From: Escherichia phage vB_EcoM_ACG-C40
Length of the DNA: 64,000 nucleotides
Sequence record: NC_019399.1
Direction: 5' to 3' (one strand)
Shown here: in pieces, positions 23,983-30,683 of the stretch
Layout: every line of letters starts with the position of its first letter
How positions within the stretch are numbered: the stretch's first letter is position 1
The notes under the pieces: model-generated
Seen by the model: the letters and a program-made list of their open reading frames with translations, nothing else
Databases searched by the model: none
What the model was told of the DNA's origin: nothing
Made by a program: the position numbers and the translations under genes

Positions 23983-24222
23983 TTAAACTCTCGTATTATG
24001 ATCGATAATTTCATCAAGAAACATATCTAACGCTTCTAAAGCATTATCAACTTTAGCTTCAAATTTTTCAATACCTTTATTTGCAATGCCTGCCGAAAAC
24101 CAAGCAAAGTCACTAAGTTCCTCATCTGCTTTGCGAATTAAAGCTACCAATTCTTTAATTTTATCTGCTTGTTCAATTCTAGTCATTATTCCACCACATA
24201 TGAAAGAGAGAATATTGCACAC
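23983..24222 (-). CDS. hypothetical protein
   Basis: 79 aa ORF. Confidence 0.4.
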
Positions 24223-24374
24223 GCCATATGAGTTGCAGCTTCATCACACATATCATAACGTTTCTTAAGAAGTTCTACAAGTTCTTCACTAGTAACTTCA
24301 TCCATGTCGACGAAAAAATCACCATTAATGATGACGTAGATATTTCCTTCTTGATTAAGTGCTTCAATTTTCAT
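24186..24374 (-). CDS. hypothetical acidic protein
   Basis: ATG 24374 with AAAGAGGAG SD; the track's TTG start lies inside the promoter. Confidence 0.45.
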
Positions 24375-24402
24375 GATGTTCTCCTCTTTATCCGATAGTT
24401 GT

Positions 24403-24432
24403 ATAGTATCACAGCTCAAATGGAAAGTAAAC
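24403..24432 (-). promoter_or_regulatory. early promoter (GTTTAC, 18 bp, TACTAT)
   Basis: gtaaac 24427..24432; atagta 24403..24408. Confidence 0.6.
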
Positions 24433-24447
24433 CGGTAAAATGAAAAA

Positions 24448-24465
24448 AGTCTCCCGAAGGAGACT
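24448..24465 (-). terminator. intrinsic terminator (UCUCC-UUCG-GGAGA plus U-run)
   Basis: agtctcccgaaggagact then TTTTTTC on the minus strand. Confidence 0.6.
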
Positions 24466-24469
24466 AATG

Positions 24470-24856
24470 TTATTCGAGGGAAAGAAGATACTTACTCTGG
24501 TAAAACATTCCAGTAATATCATCTATCGTGCTTTGAATAGCTGGAGGCATTTCTTTGTAAATTCTGTTAGATTGGTCTAGTATGCGATCAATCATTTTAA
24601 TTGTGTCGGTAGGAAGTTTACTGGCATCTGGAATTGAAGGTGTGTATTTTCTACCAGAATACCCCAAATATTGCTCACCAAATTTATCAATCAAATCTGG
24701 CAACTCGGAGAAAATAAAATCGTATGCTTTGTGTCTAGCATAACTTTTAGTTTCAAAATGTGCAGAATGAAAATAAGCTTGTGCAGCCATTAATAAACCC
24801 AAGTATTCATCTGCCTTTGAAGGTTTTCCACTTTGTGAAAAGTCGCTGAATTTCAT
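24470..24856 (-). CDS. hypothetical protein (rI.-1 position)
   Basis: 128 aa ORF downstream of rI. Confidence 0.5.
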
Positions 24857-25146
24857 TCAGTCTCCAATTTAATGTTCATAATTCTAGCGTATGATTGTGC
24901 CATCTCCGCGCCTCGTTCTATACATTCAAAATCAGAAGAGCACGGGTCATTTTTATAGGTCGTTCTCATAAAACTATAGAATTGTTCAGACGATTCTACG
25001 CTTTTATTTTCAAAAAGCATATAAACGCGCCTAATACCAGATTCCATAAATTTATCAAAATGAGGATCGACATTCGCTTCAATCGATGGAGATAAAACAA
25101 ATGACAATCCTAGCATGGCAAATAGTGCCGTTGCTTTTAAGGCCAT
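24853..25146 (-). CDS. rI: lysis-inhibition regulator rI
   Basis: 97 aa; N-terminal signal/anchor MALKATALFAMLGLSFVLSPS; matches T4 rI as recalled. Confidence 0.85.
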   Translation of the reverse strand: MALKATALFAMLGLSFVLSPSIEANVDPHFDKFMESGIRRVYMLFENKSVESSEQFYSFMRTTYKNDPCSSDFECIERGAEMAQSYARIMNIKLETE

Positions 25147-25158
25147 AAAGGCCTCCTA

Positions 25159-25371
25159 TCATTTTTGCCCTGTATTTACTTTATGCCGATGCACGGCCTT
25201 AACTTTATCAAGGTATTTTTCAAAATTTCGCAATCTAGTATAGTCTGCCGGAGATTGGTTGAGTGATACTTCTCGACGCAAAGCTGAAATGATATTTCCA
25301 ACTTCCCTACGAATTTCATCTAATTGAAGAACAGTAAGATTGCGAAGTTGCTTTTCAGTTAATTGTAGCAT
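25159..25371 (-). CDS. hypothetical protein (rI.1-like)
   Basis: 70 aa ORF. Confidence 0.45.
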
Positions 25372-25413
25372 ATATACCCCTTTAGTTAGATAAACCTATT
25401 TATAACTTTTGCA

Positions 25414-25995
25414 CTAACCAAGCTTTTTAGTTAATTCATTCCAATGTTTTCTACACAAAGAAACATAAATTTCATCACCAATACAGATTTGATTACCTTC
25501 TTTAACTGGTGTTCCATCTTCCATTAATCGAGCTGTCATAATCGCTTTTTTACCACAATGACAAACTGCCTTTAGTTCAATAAGTTTATCTGCAATCGCT
25601 AAAAGTTCTTTAGAACCTTCAAACAATTTTCCGGCGAAATCAGTCCTTAATCCATAAGCCATAACAGGAACATTATATGTATCAACAATTCGACTCAATT
25701 GATGCACTTGTTCAGTTTTTAAAAACTGAGCTTCATCTACAAATACGCAATGAATATCTTTTTGTGCTTCAGCCCATTTATAGAACTCGAAAATATCCAT
25801 ATCATCTGTAATAATATTCGCTTCCTGTTTAATTCCAATGCGAGAAACGACTTCGCAGACAGAATCGCGAGTATCAATAGCAGGCTTAAGAACTAATACA
25901 CTCATTCCACGTTCTTTATAATTATGTGCAGCAGTCAAAAGAGAAGCAGATTTTCCAGCATTCATTGCTGCATAAGTAAAAATTAAACTCGCCAT
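25414..25995 (-). CDS. tk: thymidine kinase
   Basis: 193 aa; P-loop AMNAGKS; C-terminal Cys pairs. Confidence 0.93.
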   Translation of the reverse strand: MASLIFTYAAMNAGKSASLLTAAHNYKERGMSVLVLKPAIDTRDSVCEVVSRIGIKQEANIITDDMDIFEFYKWAEAQKDIHCVFVDEAQFLKTEQVHQLSRIVDTYNVPVMAYGLRTDFAGKLFEGSKELLAIADKLIELKAVCHCGKKAIMTARLMEDGTPVKEGNQICIGDEIYVSLCRKHWNELTKKLG

Positions 25996-26004
25996 ATCAC
26001 CTTC

Positions 26005-26190
26005 TTAAAGCGTATTCACATAAGCTATTAATTCATTTTCTTTCTTATCAAACCGATCAGCAAATTCTTCCTGCTGTTCGGGAGATAACGGGCCGTATTC
26101 ATCATAAAAGGTGTTTGCTTCTGTATGCTCATCTAGAAGTTCATGGATAAGCTCAAATAATTTATCTTTTTGTTCTTTACTCAGACTCAT
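26005..26190 (-). CDS. hypothetical acidic protein (tk.1-like)
   Basis: 61 aa ORF. Confidence 0.45.
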   Translation of the reverse strand: MSLSKEQKDKLFELIHELLDEHTEANTFYDEYGPLSPEQQEEFADRFDKKENELIAYVNTL

Positions 26191-26360
26191 ATATTAATTT
26201 CCAAAAGTTTTAAAATAATTCGCTTTTGCTTAAATATTTCCACAGTTAAATGATCAGTATCTTTTTGACCAATTCCAATGGCAAAACCTTTATTAACAGC
26301 GAGTTCAATTAAATTATCAAGCTCACGTAACACTTCATACTGTAACTCAAAACTATTCAT
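26187..26360 (-). CDS. small ORF, 57 aa
   Basis: hand translation MNSFELQYEVLRELDNLIELAVNKG...; ATGA-coupled at both ends; not in ORF track. Confidence 0.35.
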   Translation of the reverse strand: MNSFELQYEVLRELDNLIELAVNKGFAIGIGQKDTDHLTVEIFKQKRIILKLLEINI

Positions 26361-26569
26361 TTCGGTTTACCTTCTTTAACGAAATCTGGATAAGGATAAA
26401 ATCCCGAATAAAATCCTTCACCTTTATGATTGATGCATCCTTTATTAGAACAATAGCACCAATAATCGAAATCACAAGCCATTTCATCGTTGCATAAAGC
26501 AAAAACAACTGGCCATTTACACTTTTCACAATGGGCATTTTTAAGAATACTAGTTTGGCTCATAACCAT
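26357..26569 (-). CDS. Cys-rich small protein (putative zinc binding)
   Basis: 70 aa; CEKCK...CNDEMACDFDYWCYCSNKGC. Confidence 0.5.
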   Translation of the reverse strand: MVMSQTSILKNAHCEKCKWPVVFALCNDEMACDFDYWCYCSNKGCINHKGEGFYSGFYPYPDFVKEGKPK

Positions 26570-26787
26570 GTAACCTTTAAGCAGTATTCTTCTACATGCT
26601 GTTTACGACCTTTCTTATCAATAAAGGTATATTCAACGAATGTTCCAATGTAGTCTTTATCTACATCATGTAGGCTATTAATTGGGCATTTAGTACGGCA
26701 AATGCGTTCCCATTGACGAATAATTACTGCCTTATTCTTTGGGTCATATGGATGTGGATAATGTATATTCATAATAACGGTTCCCAA
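26560..26787 (-). CDS. hypothetical protein
   Basis: 75 aa ORF. Confidence 0.45.
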   Translation of the reverse strand: MGTVIMNIHYPHPYDPKNKAVIIRQWERICRTKCPINSLHDVDKDYIGTFVEYTFIDKKGRKQHVEEYCLKVTWL

Positions 26788-27236
26788 TCAACAATCACAA
26801 TTTCTAATTTAGAGGAATATGTATCTAAAATCCCCTCAATAATATCCCAGTTCCCTTTACCTATGCCTGCACCAATCCTAGGCATATAGATTGTAGGTTT
26901 AATCAGTTTATTTTCACCAAACTCATTTAATTCTAACATACAATTCATTAAAGCGGAATACTCAAAATTTGGCCCTGGTTGAAATTGAGTATAAAGGTTG
27001 AAGCAATACGCTTTATGAGTCCTAAAGTATTTTTCATAGACTGAGTAAGAACCGAGTTTAGTTACATCACCCCATTCAGTCTGTAATTTATCAGCTTCCA
27101 AAATTTTAGGGAAAGCTTTGGTTAATTGACCCGCTACGCCTGAACCCATAGTATGAAAACAATTGCATCCATGCGCAATATTTTTACCTTCAGCGAAAAG
27201 GGCGACAATATCGCCCTTGATATATTTTACAATCAT
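26769..27236 (-). CDS. macro-domain-like protein (putative ADP-ribose binding/hydrolase)
   Basis: 155 aa; GDI...IAHGCNC...MGSGVAGQL, ...FQPGP..., ...RIGAGIGKGNW pattern resembles macro-domain motifs. Confidence 0.5.
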   Translation of the reverse strand: MIVKYIKGDIVALFAEGKNIAHGCNCFHTMGSGVAGQLTKAFPKILEADKLQTEWGDVTKLGSYSVYEKYFRTHKAYCFNLYTQFQPGPNFEYSALMNCMLELNEFGENKLIKPTIYMPRIGAGIGKGNWDIIEGILDTYSSKLEIVIVDWEPLL

Positions 27237-27574
27237 CTAGTACTCAATCCTCGATTATAAGAATCTACCAAACGGTCAACCATTGAATGACAAGCGGCTT
27301 TATCTTTCTCCTCCGCAACTGAACATTCTAAGGTATTCCACTTTTTAGCATATCGTTTTAATAATGTATCGTTTTTGTATCTGCTTGATTTATCTCTTTC
27401 TCCGTCTTTATATGCATATATTAATTTCTGTGCAAATTCAGCTTGGCATGCTTTATTTTTCCCACAATAATCTGCCGCAGTGCGGTTTACATATTCTCTA
27501 ATTTCAGTATATGATGTATCTGCTAACGCAGAAAATGAAATTAATCCTATACATAAAACCAAAATTTTAGTCAT
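27233..27574 (-). CDS. secreted Cys-containing protein (possibly vs by position)
   Basis: 113 aa; N-terminal signal peptide MTKILVLCIGLISFSALA. Confidence 0.45.
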   Translation of the reverse strand: MTKILVLCIGLISFSALADTSYTEIREYVNRTAADYCGKNKACQAEFAQKLIYAYKDGERDKSSRYKNDTLLKRYAKKWNTLECSVAEEKDKAACHSMVDRLVDSYNRGLSTR

Positions 27575-27577
27575 TTA

Positions 27578-28111
27578 CTATTCCAAAAGTTTATTATTTT
27601 TAAGGTAATTAGCCTTTTCTAGGACTTCAGAAGCATATTTAGAACCTGCTTTAACATTCCATCCCGAATTATAAGAGGATATTGCTTTTCTTATATCGCC
27701 CTTATGTATATTTAACCAATAAGAAAGTTCAATGTACGCCCAGGAAGCTGAATTGGATCGTTTATTCAACATTCTTTTTATTTCAGCATCGGTCATATTA
27801 TAACCAAGTTCCTTAACTCTTGCTCGCATAGTAGGCAAATAATTTTGGAACATTCCATAAGCGTGATGCTTTGGTTTAGATTTTAAATTAACTCCGCCAG
27901 AGCTTTCTTGCCATAAAATAGCAGCCATTATATGACCTAATCCGCTCTTGTGGATATTTTTGTGTGTTTTATATTTTCCATCCTTAGAAAATTGTTCCCC
28001 GAATTGATACGCGTAACGCATGTTATCGAGTTGGACATTACTGAAAGTATGCTCGGAGCTATGTGCCATCATTGAAATGGCCAATAGACCAGCGAGTAGT
28101 GCTTTTCTCAT
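27578..28111 (-). CDS. periplasmic lytic-transglycosylase-like protein (SLT domain)
   Basis: 177 aa; signal peptide; WQESSG, YGMFQ and YNSG motifs. Confidence 0.55.
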   Translation of the reverse strand: MRKALLAGLLAISMMAHSSEHTFSNVQLDNMRYAYQFGEQFSKDGKYKTHKNIHKSGLGHIMAAILWQESSGGVNLKSKPKHHAYGMFQNYLPTMRARVKELGYNMTDAEIKRMLNKRSNSASWAYIELSYWLNIHKGDIRKAISSYNSGWNVKAGSKYASEVLEKANYLKNNKLLE

Positions 28112-28118
28112 GCTTACC

Positions 28119-28580
28119 TCATTGAGTTTTAATTACTGCTTTAGAAGCCTTTCCTGGTAAACGACGACTGTTGATAATTGCCATCCTGCATTGAAGTGAC
28201 GGGTTTTTGAACTTCTCATTAGGCTTACAAACCGTAAATCCAAGCCAAAGATTTCCATCTGTGATTTCTAAACGTCCAGGACGATATTCAACCCCATCAA
28301 TAAAATCCTCGTCAATGTCAGGACGCGGAGGCATACTCAGGAATTCATTAACTTCTAAAACATGGTCTTTTATTTTATGGAATAATTCAAAAACATATGT
28401 CTCATCAATCTCCCGTTGAATTGCACGATCAAGAAGATGCTGAGAATATTTTAGATGAAACGATGAGACCCCTGCTGCTTTTGATGCCTCACGAATCTCA
28501 TTGTTAATTTGACGAAACTCCGACTCAAAGTGACGACGAAGCTTATTTCTACGGATAAAAACTTCTGTATTGATAGTCAT
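28119..28580 (-). CDS. regB: site-specific RNA endonuclease RegB
   Basis: 153 aa; matches T4 RegB length and sequence as recalled. Confidence 0.8.
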   Translation of the reverse strand: MTINTEVFIRRNKLRRHFESEFRQINNEIREASKAAGVSSFHLKYSQHLLDRAIQREIDETYVFELFHKIKDHVLEVNEFLSMPPRPDIDEDFIDGVEYRPGRLEITDGNLWLGFTVCKPNEKFKNPSLQCRMAIINSRRLPGKASKAVIKTQ

Positions 28581-28639
28581 GTTATTCTCCTCTTAACTGA
28601 TAGAAAAATTATACCACAGTCAAGAGGAAAAGTAAACAG

Positions 28640-28918
28640 TTATTCTTTAAATCTAATCAATTTATTCATAGACTTTGTAACTTCTGCACGAACCTCATGT
28701 AAGTTTTTAAGCTGTTCAAGACGTTGCTCATAGTAAGCAATTTCATCTTCTTCGAGGCAGTCCTGTGAATCTTCTTTAAGATAACGTGCATAGTCCTGGA
28801 AAGCTTTACGGACTACTTCCTGGAAGTCATCAAGACTTTGAATTTTCTTAGGAGCAACAGATACACGACGAGGGGCAGTATAATACTCATAACCAAACCC
28901 TGCGCTTAATTGAGCCAT
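28640..28918 (-). CDS. hypothetical protein
   Basis: ATG 28918 overlaps the upstream stop (TAATG); track start is GTG. Confidence 0.45.
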
Positions 28919-29184
28919 TAGTATTTTTCCTCTGGTTGGAACACTGCGCGACAAGCCCACATACTGGCTTCTTTGAGTTTCATTTTAGCAATAGTTAACT
29001 GATCGAGGCTTTCGGCGTAATTCTTCGCGAGTTCATCATCTTCACAGCTATCAAATGCTTCCCAGAATTCATCATATAAAGCATCAAAGATAAGCCCTAA
29101 ACGAACTTCAGCATCTTTGATAGCATTCACTTTACTGATTTTATCGTCAGTATGTGGTTTATAACCTTTAATGTCTTCAATCAT
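28918..29184 (-). CDS. hypothetical acidic protein
   Basis: 88 aa ORF. Confidence 0.45.
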
Positions 29185-29398
29185 ATTTTACTTCCTCACC
29201 TGTTCCCAAATCATATTCAACTAAACGAATAGGTTCATGAATGCCATATCCTTGAACAGAAATTTCTGTCGTAGGATAAATTCCATTAATATCACCCATG
29301 TTCCATGCTTCGTTAAATTGCTGTTCGCCTGAATTACTAAACCACTCGGCGAAAGCATTTAGCACATCTTCAGAACCTTCAATAATTATCTTTGCCAT
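29177..29398 (-). CDS. hypothetical acidic protein
   Basis: 73 aa ORF, TAATG-coupled to the GrcA-like gene. Confidence 0.45.
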   Translation of the reverse strand: MAKIIIEGSEDVLNAFAEWFSNSGEQQFNEAWNMGDINGIYPTTEISVQGYGIHEPIRLVEYDLGTGEEVKYD

Positions 29399-29760
29399 TA
29401 CAAACTCTCGGTGAAGGTACGAGCGATAACGTCGCGCTGCTGTTCCGGAGTCAGAGAGTTAAAGCGAACTGCATAACCGGATACACGGATGGTCAGCTGC
29501 GGATATTTTTCCGGATGCTTAACTGCATCTTCCAGAGTTTCACGACGCAGAACGTTAACGTTCAGGTGTTGACCACCTTCAATTTTAACTGTAGGCTGTT
29601 GCTCAATTTCAATTTCACGGGCATGCAAACCATAGAAAATTTCTGGGTCTACAAAAGAGTCCTCTTTAAAGGTTTTAGAGACAATAATTCGTGCTTGAAT
29701 ACCATCTTCAAAATAAATAGTACCTTTATGTGTGCCTTCAAGAATTTGATATGCTTTCAT
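29398..29760 (-). CDS. autonomous glycyl-radical cofactor (GrcA/YfiD-like; T4 Y06I-like)
   Basis: 120 aa; C-terminal half matches E. coli GrcA as recalled, including [13 protein letters not shown]. Confidence 0.85.
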
Positions 29761-29766
29761 ATAACC

Positions 29767-30096
29767 TCAATTAGAAAATAAATTTATCCAAGATTGTTCT
29801 TTAATTAAAAATGGCTCAGAATCATATGCCATTAAACTCTGTGTGATTAGTCCTTTAAAAGGCCCATCAATAAATTCCATGGTAAAATATGGAATTTTAT
29901 TCATTAGCCGTGCATTAGGAGCCGTGCACAAAACTCTGCATCCTTTGAATACGCCTTTTTGTAATTTGTATTGCTTGGGATAAAATTCGCTCAAAATGTT
30001 ATTATTTGCTAAAATTTCAAAATGATTCACCAATTTATTTTTAATAGTTTTTGGTGAAAAATAAAGATATTCGAAAAGCTGAGTGTCTGTCATCAT
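29767..30096 (-). CDS. hypothetical protein, 109 aa
   Basis: ATG 30096 overlaps the ATPase stop (ATGA); track ORF extends upstream. Confidence 0.5.
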   Translation of the reverse strand: MMTDTQLFEYLYFSPKTIKNKLVNHFEILANNNILSEFYPKQYKLQKGVFKGCRVLCTAPNARLMNKIPYFTMEFIDGPFKGLITQSLMAYDSEPFLIKEQSWINLFSN

Positions 30097-30683
30097 TGCA
30101 TTCCAATCACAAAAAATTGAGGACGAGTAATACCACCAATACAGCATTTACTATTGCAGCAATATTGCACAGTTTCAATATGGACACTATAAATCTTATC
30201 CATATCAGGAGATTTAACAGGCTCATCGATTATATACAAAATTCGAGAAAGCGATAAACCTCTGAACTTGCTACCTCTATTACCAACAAAACTACGGACA
30301 GAATCAGTAAATAAACGGAATCGAATATCATCGCTAGAATAACGAGAAAATTCTTTTTTAATGCGGCCCACAGAAATTTTAGCGTAAGCTGAAGTATTAG
30401 AAAGAACAATAACTGTTCCACCATCATACAACCAATTAGCGGCAAAATTAGTTACTGCAGTTGATTTACCGGATTGTCTGCCACCATCTAAACGAAGTGT
30501 ACAATATTCTTTAAATAAATACGACGAATCAGGTACATAAAATCCACTATTACAAATTTCTTCTACTCTAGCGTCAGAATGGTGTGTAAAAGCATTCATC
30601 AGGGATAGATAAGGACCAGTTAAAAATGTTCTCATTTTATTCTCTCTAAATTTGGGCCATTCCATGGCGCATGAATTGTCCAT
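30093..30683 (-). CDS. small P-loop NTPase (RecA/KaiC-like Walker A and B); start uncertain (M1 or M17)
   Basis: Walker A LDGGRQSGKST and Walker B ILYIIDEP. Confidence 0.55.
   Translation of the reverse strand: MDNSCAMEWPKFRENKMRTFLTGPYLSLMNAFTHHSDARVEEICNSGFYVPDSSYLFKEYCTLRLDGGRQSGKSTAVTNFAANWLYDGGTVIVLSNTSAYAKISVGRIKKEFSRYSSDDIRFRLFTDSVRSFVGNRGSKFRGLSLSRILYIIDEPVKSPDMDKIYSVHIETVQYCCNSKCCIGGITRPQFFVIGMQ

Follow-up and report, generated by a model that had tools for sequence, protein, structure and literature searches.

Tk.4 (AdfM) of Escherichia phage vB_EcoM_ACG-C40, a phage-borne macrodomain protein with a predicted glutamine-type active site and a published role against DarTG2

Described counterparts of Tk.4

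Human TARG1 (OARD1; PDB 4J5R/4J5S) is a macrodomain protein whose catalytic residues are K84 and D125. TARG1 cleaves ADP-ribosyl-thymidine (ADPr-thymidine) (PMC12879935). In the macrodomain of DarG (DarG2; PDB 5M31/5M3E, 5M3I), the antitoxin of DarTG2, K80 is essential and the K80A protein is inactive (PMC5179494). SCO6735 of Streptomyces coelicolor (PDB 5E3B) and BT1257 (PDB 2FG1/2AFC), which is 54% identical to SCO6735 and also bears the glutamine, are ALC1-like macrodomains of the Gln type. SCO6735 lacks both catalytic residues of TARG1 and has Gln85 instead, and it cleaves DarT-made ADPr-thymidine on ssDNA in vitro and protects cells from DarT (PMC9411070). Activity of SCO6735 is abolished in the Q85A and Q85E variants, almost abolished in N27S and impaired in G128E; the authors propose that the glutamine orients the distal ribose and that cleavage is started by an activated water (PMC9411070). 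A mobile loop that is five residues longer than in DarG and TARG1 and carries Lys89 is characteristic of the SCO6735 subclass, and this loop together with the cationic residues K34 and K89 has been linked to the activity of the protein on DNA (PMC9411070).

The name AdfM has been given to two phage proteins. One of these is PhiKZ gp104 (anti-darT factor macro; Cell Rep 2026), which strips DarT2-made ADP-ribose from an oligonucleotide in vitro and whose activity is reduced by the N23A substitution (PMC13309987). PhiKZ gp104 thereby provides evidence that phages use orphan macrodomains as erasers of ADPr-DNA. The other is Tk.4 of phage T4. A T4 mutant without adfA and adfN is still resistant to DarTG2 (PMC11825919), and a further anti-DarTG2 factor was therefore predicted. 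In a HIDEN-SEQ preprint in which a T4 transposon library was passed over DarTG2-expressing E. coli, tk.4 was the sole significant gene, and a clean knockout of tk.4 sensitised T4 to DarTG2 (bioRxiv 10.1101/2025.11.20.689424). The authors of that study named the gene adfM, for anti-DarT factor Macrodomain, noted the structural similarity of its product to Mtb DarG, and, for ADP-ribose on DNA, wrote that its enzymatic removal 'seems likely' (bioRxiv 10.1101/2025.11.20.689424). The genetics of tk.4 come from this one preprint, in which DarTG2 was expressed from a plasmid, and no biochemical assay of Tk.4 was found in the literature. AdfN (T4 30.3, a NADAR protein) is likewise an antitoxin-like orphan eraser carried by T4 and represents the same strategy as Tk.4 (PMC11825919), but its specificity is for ADPr attached to guanosine (DarTG1), and it gives no protection from DarTG2 (PMC11825919; bioRxiv 10.1101/2025.11.20.689424). 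The folds of AdfN and AdfA are unrelated to that of Tk.4.

The tk.4 locus of vB_EcoM_ACG-C40

The window analysed here is a stretch of 64,000 nucleotides from Escherichia phage vB_EcoM_ACG-C40 (NC_019399.1). According to the ORF list of the window, it contains an ATG-to-TGA reading frame (Table 1) encoding 155 amino acids, all of which (155/155, 100%) are identical to those of T4 Tk.4. X04567 lists the T4 protein as ORF 60.5, and in NC_000866 it is entry NP_049723 with the annotation 'phosphatase; Tk.4; contains A1pp phosphatase motif'. The location of the gene between vs and tk.3 also matches NC_000866, which makes it an ortholog of T4 tk.4 by both sequence and position. The role of tk.4 against DarTG2 is thus already known from published genetics on an identical protein, and no protein-level difference separates the present protein from T4 AdfM, although the carrier phage is a relative of T4 and not the reference strain. 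What is added here is modest and consists of the Gln-type active site, the placement of Tk.4 in a short-loop, phage-borne subfamily of its own, and the distinction between Tk.4 and its PhiKZ namesake.

A 3.2-kb stretch around tk.4 is 98.9% identical to many Tequatrovirus genomes, and the flanks of the gene are 96.5-97.2% identical to those in T4. The segment from tk to tk.3 is not collinear with reference T4 and holds a different cassette of small genes; this alternative cassette is common, occurring in 344 phage records. A preliminary description of the locus had placed the macrodomain gene next to the thymidine kinase gene. The two are indeed close to one another, but they are not adjacent, as four small ORFs (774 bp) separate tk (25414..25995) from tk.4.

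The immediate neighbours of tk.4 are vs upstream and tk.3 downstream, in a tightly packed string of co-directional genes. The tk.3 gene is a 70-aa ORF that matches PHROG 2008 and is collinear with T4 tk.3. Since vs ends and tk.4 begins within a shared ATGA, translation of tk.4 is likely coupled to that of vs within the string. In the T4 record X04567, a ribosome_binding_site is annotated under the match to the tk.4 region. A scan of positions 25300-30300 for promoters and terminators was uninformative, with 21 promoter-like sites against 20.1 expected; the best promoter-like site on the minus strand in this interval lies upstream of regB and is a lead only.

Table 1. Coordinates of tk.4 and of associated features in the window
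Feature	Position	Strand	Basis or conservation
ATGA overlap, tk.4 stop codon / tk.3 start codon	26769..26772	-	sequence GAACCGTTATTATGAATATA
tk.4 / adfM CDS, single-domain macrodomain	26769..27236	-	ORF; T4 Tk.4 identity; Pfam Macro; AlphaFold2 model
P119-W130 codons (PRIGAGIGKGNW), phosphate-binding loop	26847..26882	-	P119, I121, G122 and G124 invariant
Gln84 codon CAA, position of the catalytic Lys	26985..26987	-	invariant, 76/76
G31-S32-G33-V34 codons, GxG loop after second strand (ADP-ribose cleft)	27135..27146	-	G33 invariant
H22-G23-C24-N25 codons, near-invariant HGCNC motif	27162..27173	-	H 71/76, N 75/76
ATGA overlap, vs stop codon / tk.4 start codon	27233..27236	-	ORF coordinates and sequence
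Putative Shine-Dalgarno GAGGA, 11 nt upstream of tk.4 ATG	27248..27252	-	read from sequence; proposed function

Fold, class and active site

The preliminary description had recognised a macro domain from motifs in the 155-aa ORF, all of which are present (KGDIV, IAHGCNC, MGSGVAGQL, FQPGP and PRIGAGIGKGNW), and that call is borne out by profile, fold and conserved ligand-binding loops. The profile search that it proposed as a check gave a match to Pfam PF01661 (Macro) above the gathering score (27.7 bits against 22; E 2.9e-6; profile positions 2-113 of 118), and macrodomains were also matched by a family profile and by hhalign. The match of Tk.4 to PHROG 335 has an E value of 1.3e-65. When compared as a single sequence with solved macrodomains, Tk.4 is closest to BT1257 (1.3e-9), followed by Poa1p, DarG and TARG1. 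A profile of 76 homologues matches the PDB macrodomains BT1257, TARG1, SCO6735, DarG and Poa1p at E values of 2e-18 to 6e-12, with BT1257 as the best PDB sequence match (E 1.9e-18), and hhalign gives a probability of 98.8% for the match of the Tk.4 family to DarG. Coronavirus Mac1, in contrast, reaches only about 2e-3 with the family profile, and alphavirus macrodomains are also far weaker.

An AlphaFold2 model of Tk.4 built on the alignment of the 76 homologues has a pLDDT of 95.6 and a pTM of 0.91. In a Foldseek search of the PDB with this model the top matches are all macrodomains, TARG1 being the best (1.6e-9), followed by Poa1p, BT1257 and the DarG macrodomains. The TM-scores are 0.75-0.80 for the DarG macrodomains of T. 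aquaticus and M. tuberculosis, and 0.79-0.80 for Taq DarG with ADPr. The three-layer alpha/beta macro fold, the GxG loop and the phosphate-binding glycine loop are all found in Tk.4, and G33, G122 and G124 are invariant. Judged by the profiles and the model, Tk.4 is a true macrodomain. It appears to belong to the ALC1-like class (TARG1/DarG/SCO6735) and not to the MacroD, PARG or viral Mac1 types, an assignment which follows its nearest profile and Foldseek neighbours and for which both gave the same ranking.

Conservation in the Tk.4 family was counted over 76 relatives with identities down to 35%. In the alignments, N25 of Tk.4 corresponds to DarG N22, PhiKZ gp104 N23 and SCO6735 N27, and H22 corresponds to SCO6735 H24; mutagenesis of residues equivalent to N25 and H22 has been reported (PMC5179494, PMC13309987, PMC9411070). 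The GxG motif has been described as part of the ADPr-binding cleft (PMC9503650). Q84 aligns with TARG1 K84, DarG K80, PhiKZ gp104 K78 and SCO6735 Q85. Three methods agree on this column, namely hmmsearch of the family profile against TARG1, MAFFT (with alignments that took in deposited DarG sequences) and hhalign against DarG, and the motif around it is NLYTQF in the Tk.4 family as opposed to FPTKKHW in DarG and LITKKR in TARG1. The position of TARG1 D125 is occupied by G126 in Tk.4 and by Ala or Gly throughout the family. G122 and G124, each of which is conserved in 76/76 relatives, align with SCO6735 G126 and G128, and activity is lost in DarG G119E, which is altered at the equivalent loop glycine (PMC5179494). 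D49 and Y82 are invariant residues specific to the Tk.4 family. With respect to yeast Poa1p, H22 is the equivalent of His23, and the equivalent of Ser30 is Thr29, which is present in 49/76 relatives.

Because H22, N25, Q84, G122 and G124 correspond to H24, N27, Q85, G126 and G128 of the deposited SCO6735 sequence, the numbering of which was checked against the residues named in PMC9411070, Tk.4 appears to carry the known and active Gln-type (SCO6735-like) catalytic arrangement and not the Lys-type arrangement of DarG and TARG1. As Tk.4 lacks the catalytic lysine, Q84 and N25 are the residues to mutate.

Tk.4 and SCO6735 share the glutamine at the catalytic position, the supporting asparagine, the histidine and the loop glycines. 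The two proteins differ in several other respects. Tk.4 is only 20% identical to SCO6735 (29% to BT1257) and is encoded by a phage, whereas SCO6735 is the product of a chromosomal bacterial gene. Tk.4 lacks the longer mobile loop of the SCO6735 subclass, the difference amounting to 5-6 alignment columns, and its loop has the length found in TARG1 and DarG. The cationic K34 and K89 of SCO6735 are replaced by S32 and G88, and Tk.4 is mildly acidic (pI 5.9) while SCO6735 has a pI of 9.7. On these alignments, Tk.4 does not fall neatly within the SCO6735 subclass. Net charge or pI was considered as a proxy for DNA binding and was discarded for want of discrimination, as PhiKZ gp104 has a pI of 5.05 yet acts on DNA.

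With DarG, Tk.4 has in common the macro fold and class, the conserved asparagine, the glycine loops and an opposition to DarT2, but K80 of DarG is replaced by glutamine and the identity is 19-22%. Membership of Tk.4 in DarG is ruled out by its score of 30.3 bits with NCBIfam NF048014 (the DarG equivalog, with a cutoff of 250), where the alignment covers no more of the 338-position model than its macro part, as well as by the missing lysine, the missing C-terminal domain and the absence of a darT gene beside tk.4, where the neighbours are vs and tk.3. In TARG1 and Tk.4 the loop that follows the catalytic position is equally long, but the K84/D125 dyad of TARG1 is Q84/G126 in Tk.4. PhiKZ gp104 resembles Tk.4 in being a phage-encoded orphan macrodomain directed against DarTG2 and in having the conserved asparagine. 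Its sequence, taken as the translation of the published construct, is 35% identical to that of Mtb DarG (E 3e-31) and keeps the lysine (K78, in FPTKDNW), whereas a BLASTP comparison with Tk.4 gives 21 bits over 23 residues only. PhiKZ gp104 thus represents a different, DarG2-like subfamily to which Tk.4 does not belong, and its biochemistry is therefore not simply transferable to Tk.4. The name AdfM covers two proteins that are unrelated at the family level and that appear, from their sequences, to be separate recruitments from different branches of the same macrodomain class.

Proposed mechanism, alternatives and distribution

It is likely that Tk.4 is an orphan phage macrodomain enzyme that hydrolyses DarT2-made ADPr-thymidine in DNA by Gln-type chemistry. 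Upon infection of a DarTG2 host, the freed DarT2 toxin places ADP-ribose on N3 of thymidine within TNTC motifs of single-stranded DNA, and replication of the phage DNA is blocked. The ADP-ribosyl-thymidine adduct would most likely be bound in the macrodomain cleft of Tk.4, where hydrolysis of the bond between ribose and base would most likely restore replicable DNA. The chemistry is probably not lysine-based as it is in DarG and TARG1, and would instead use the invariant Q84, held by N25, as in SCO6735. The parts of this scheme that we infer are the catalytic activity of Tk.4, ADPr-thymidine in DNA as its substrate, and a mechanism of the Gln type. The preliminary description had suggested that a phage macro domain could reverse host ADP-ribosylation of the DarT type, a suggestion supported by the published tk.4 genetics on DarTG2, and the plating on DarTG hosts that it recommended had already been carried out in the preprint with a positive outcome (bioRxiv 10.1101/2025.11.20.689424). 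Counterpoints to hydrolysis are that Tk.4 has neither the catalytic lysine of DarG and TARG1 nor the aspartate of TARG1, and that it is only 16-29% identical to any enzyme with proven ADPr-thymidine activity and so is no close copy of one. A reading of Tk.4 as an inactive binder, drawn from the missing lysine, was dropped given that SCO6735, in which the pattern of residues is the same, is a Gln-type hydrolase with activity on ADPr-thymidine.

Tk.4 could alternatively neutralise DarT2 mainly by non-catalytic means, as a stoichiometric antitoxin mimic that binds the toxin or occupies the modified or target DNA. The absence of the canonical catalytic lysine fits such a role, as does the observation that the dead Q85A variant of SCO6735 still inhibits DarT in vitro, and does so more strongly than DarG K80A or TARG1 K84A (PMC9411070); in addition, the phage anti-DarT factors AdfA and AdfB are thought to work by direct interaction (PMC11481870). 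However, the 155 residues of Tk.4 make up the macro fold only, with no DarG-type C-terminal domain for binding DarT, and a macrodomain-only K80A construct of TaqDarG did not inhibit DarT (PMC5179494). Moreover, relatives as distant as 35% identity strictly retain Q84, N25 and the loop glycines, as would be expected of an active site. As the principal mode of action, non-catalytic neutralisation seems improbable, but inhibition of DarT2 of this kind could realistically contribute to the mechanism. It is very unlikely that Tk.4 is instead an enzyme for a small molecule, such as ADP-ribose-1''-phosphate, O-acetyl-ADP-ribose or an NAD-derived immune signal, with the DarTG2 phenotype arising indirectly. 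The T4 and PHROG annotations (phosphatase, A1pp motif) point in that direction, and Poa1p ranks high among the matches by both sequence and fold, its mutated His23 aligning with H22. The 'phosphatase' label, however, derives from the old A1pp domain name and not from an assay, and in the catalytic column, where Poa1p has Ser, Tk.4 agrees with SCO6735, for which hydrolysis of ADPr-thymidine is proven. Furthermore, the only Tk.4 phenotype found is specific to DarTG2, the product of which is a DNA adduct. To our knowledge, T4 encodes no KptA/Tpt1-type enzyme to generate Appr>p, which also counts against a small-molecule substrate.

T4 encodes three ADP-ribosyltransferases, Alt, ModA and ModB, and the preliminary description had raised the possibility that the macro domain tunes the phage's own modifications. 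Under this proposal Tk.4 would reverse or adjust the modifications that Alt, ModA and ModB make on host proteins or RNA. Arginine is the residue modified by Alt and ModA, and we know of no TARG1-class macrodomain that cleaves the arginine-ADPr linkage, which counts against the proposal. Alt and ModA are mentioned in the HIDEN-SEQ preprint (bioRxiv 10.1101/2025.11.20.689424), and enzymes of the TARG1 class can strip protein-linked ADPr, with SCO6735 acting on the automodification of PARP1 (PMC9411070). The read counts of tk.4, however, fell specifically when DarTG2 was present (bioRxiv 10.1101/2025.11.20.689424), and there is no ADP-ribosyltransferase gene near tk.4 in positions 24000-30000. 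With a phenotype specific to DarTG2, a function in tuning the phage's own enzymes is unsupported and we regard it as extremely unlikely. A role for Tk.4 as a general eraser of ADPr from nucleic acids was also considered and appears unlikely, given that the mRNA ADP-ribosyltransferase CmdTAC remains a strong defence against wild-type T4.

There is a small chance that the TARG1/DarG class has in Tk.4 a third catalytic flavour, specific to phages, in which substrate range or mechanism could differ from those of the characterised enzymes. This suggestion is based on the pairing of an SCO6735-type glutamine site with a loop as short as that of DarG and TARG1, and on the invariant D49 and Y82. Such an enzyme might, for example, act on ADPr-thymidine located beside glucosyl-hydroxymethyl-cytosine in T4 DNA or on ADPr-uracil in RNA, or might combine hydrolysis with direct inhibition of DarT2.

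Relatives of Tk.4 were found by tblastn in 2,749 of 50,697 phage records, and a new specificity, if true, would affect the many phages in which the family is matched. The carriers include T4-like phages of many hosts as well as Felixounavirus-type, Vequintavirus-type, Pseudomonas, Campylobacter and Bacillus phages. Two homologues that are labelled as proteins of bacterial MAGs sit in T4-like phage contigs, with neighbours encoding Rnl1, PNKP, a Dda-type helicase, a spanin and dCMP deaminase, and no DarT gene lies beside the Tk.4 homologue in these two loci. The idea of bacterial Tk.4 members paired with DarT was accordingly rejected, both candidates examined being phage contigs. On this sample of two loci, the Tk.4 family looks like a phage-borne orphan without a DarT partner. 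For so widespread a phage family, the labels 'phosphatase' and 'hypothetical protein' are outdated.

The case of tk.4 is one in which a phage counters an enzymatic defence, the ADP-ribosylation of DNA by DarT2, with what is probably an eraser enzyme carried as an orphan. With it, the known layered anti-DarT set of T4 is complete and comprises AdfA, AdfN against DarTG1, and Tk.4/AdfM against DarTG2.

The segment between tk and tk.3

Collinearity with reference T4 is lost between tk, the thymidine kinase gene, and tk.3 (positions 25996-26558). This segment carries tk.1 and tk.2 in reference T4, whereas here it is occupied by three small ORFs, and similarity between the two versions is confined to a 181-nt stretch with 69% identity. 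The three-ORF cassette was found in 344 Tequatrovirus records (coverage of at least 80%) and is therefore a common alternative module. One of its members, a cysteine-rich ORF, has no counterpart at the same position in reference T4, and the spacing of its cysteines suggests that the product is a small zinc-binding protein.

Features of the region from tk to regB
Feature	Position	Strand	Description
Small ORF	26005..26190	-	PHROG 653, no known function
Small ORF	26187..26360	-	PHROG 3452, no known function
Small cysteine-rich ORF	26357..26569	-	70 aa; CxxC...C...C...CxC...C; PHROG 2306, no known function
tk.4 Y82 codon	26991..26993	-	invariant, 76/76 family members
tk.4 D49 codon	27090..27092	-	invariant, 76/76 family members
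Inverted repeat within tk.4	27198-27218		perfect, 8 bp, 5 G-C pairs; AAGGGCGA-caata-TCGCCCTT
vs	27233..27574	-	hydrophobic, signal-peptide-like N-terminus
vs.1	27578..28111	-	hydrophobic, signal-peptide-like N-terminus
Promoter-like site	28608-28636	-	TTTACT-17-TATAAT, extended -10 TG; regional scan

The genes and signals from regB to tk.4

The promoter-like site directly upstream of regB (28119..28580) is the best of those on the coding strand in this region, and transcription of the regB-vs.1-vs-tk.4 string may start from it. Taken over the whole region, the scan returned no excess of promoter-like sites over chance (21 sites versus 20.1 expected). The N-termini of the vs and vs.1 proteins are MTKILVLCIGLISFSALA and MRKALLAGLLAISMMAHS, respectively, and their resemblance to signal peptides is not what one would expect of a 'valyl-tRNA synthetase modifier'. 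The vs.1 protein weakly matches families of lytic transglycosylases and of endolysins. According to the HIDEN-SEQ preprint (bioRxiv 10.1101/2025.11.20.689424), vs showed the strongest depletion among T4 genes in minimal medium.

The inverted repeat in tk.4 begins 18 nt past the start codon and spans codons 7-13. The terminator scan called it on the plus strand, antisense to tk.4, with a T-rich tail after the repeat. The tk.4 mRNA could fold into a hairpin here, or the repeat could serve as an antisense terminator. Alternatively, the repeat may have arisen by chance.

Tk.4 homologues and family-specific residues

Two Tk.4 homologues lie on contigs labelled as bacterial metagenome-assembled genomes, L002 (Bacilli bacterium, GCA_051648945.1, 44 kb) and L003 (Culicoidibacterales, GCA_051660865.1, 41 kb). 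The homologue is surrounded in both by genes for T4-type Rnl1, PNKP, a Dda-like helicase, a T4 spanin and dCMP deaminase, and the contigs look like T4-like phage sequences mis-binned as bacteria.

The name AdfM is ambiguous, as T4 Tk.4 and PhiKZ gp104 each received it independently. The two proteins are alignable by BLASTP over just 23 residues. T4 Tk.4 is of the Gln type and its support is genetic only, whereas PhiKZ gp104 is DarG-like and of the Lys type, with its biochemistry shown. SCO6735, BT1257, TARG1, DarG and PhiKZ gp104 have Tyr or Leu at the position of Tk.4 D49 and Ile or Pro at that of Y82. D49 and Y82 are positions specific to the Tk.4 family, close to the active-site strand.
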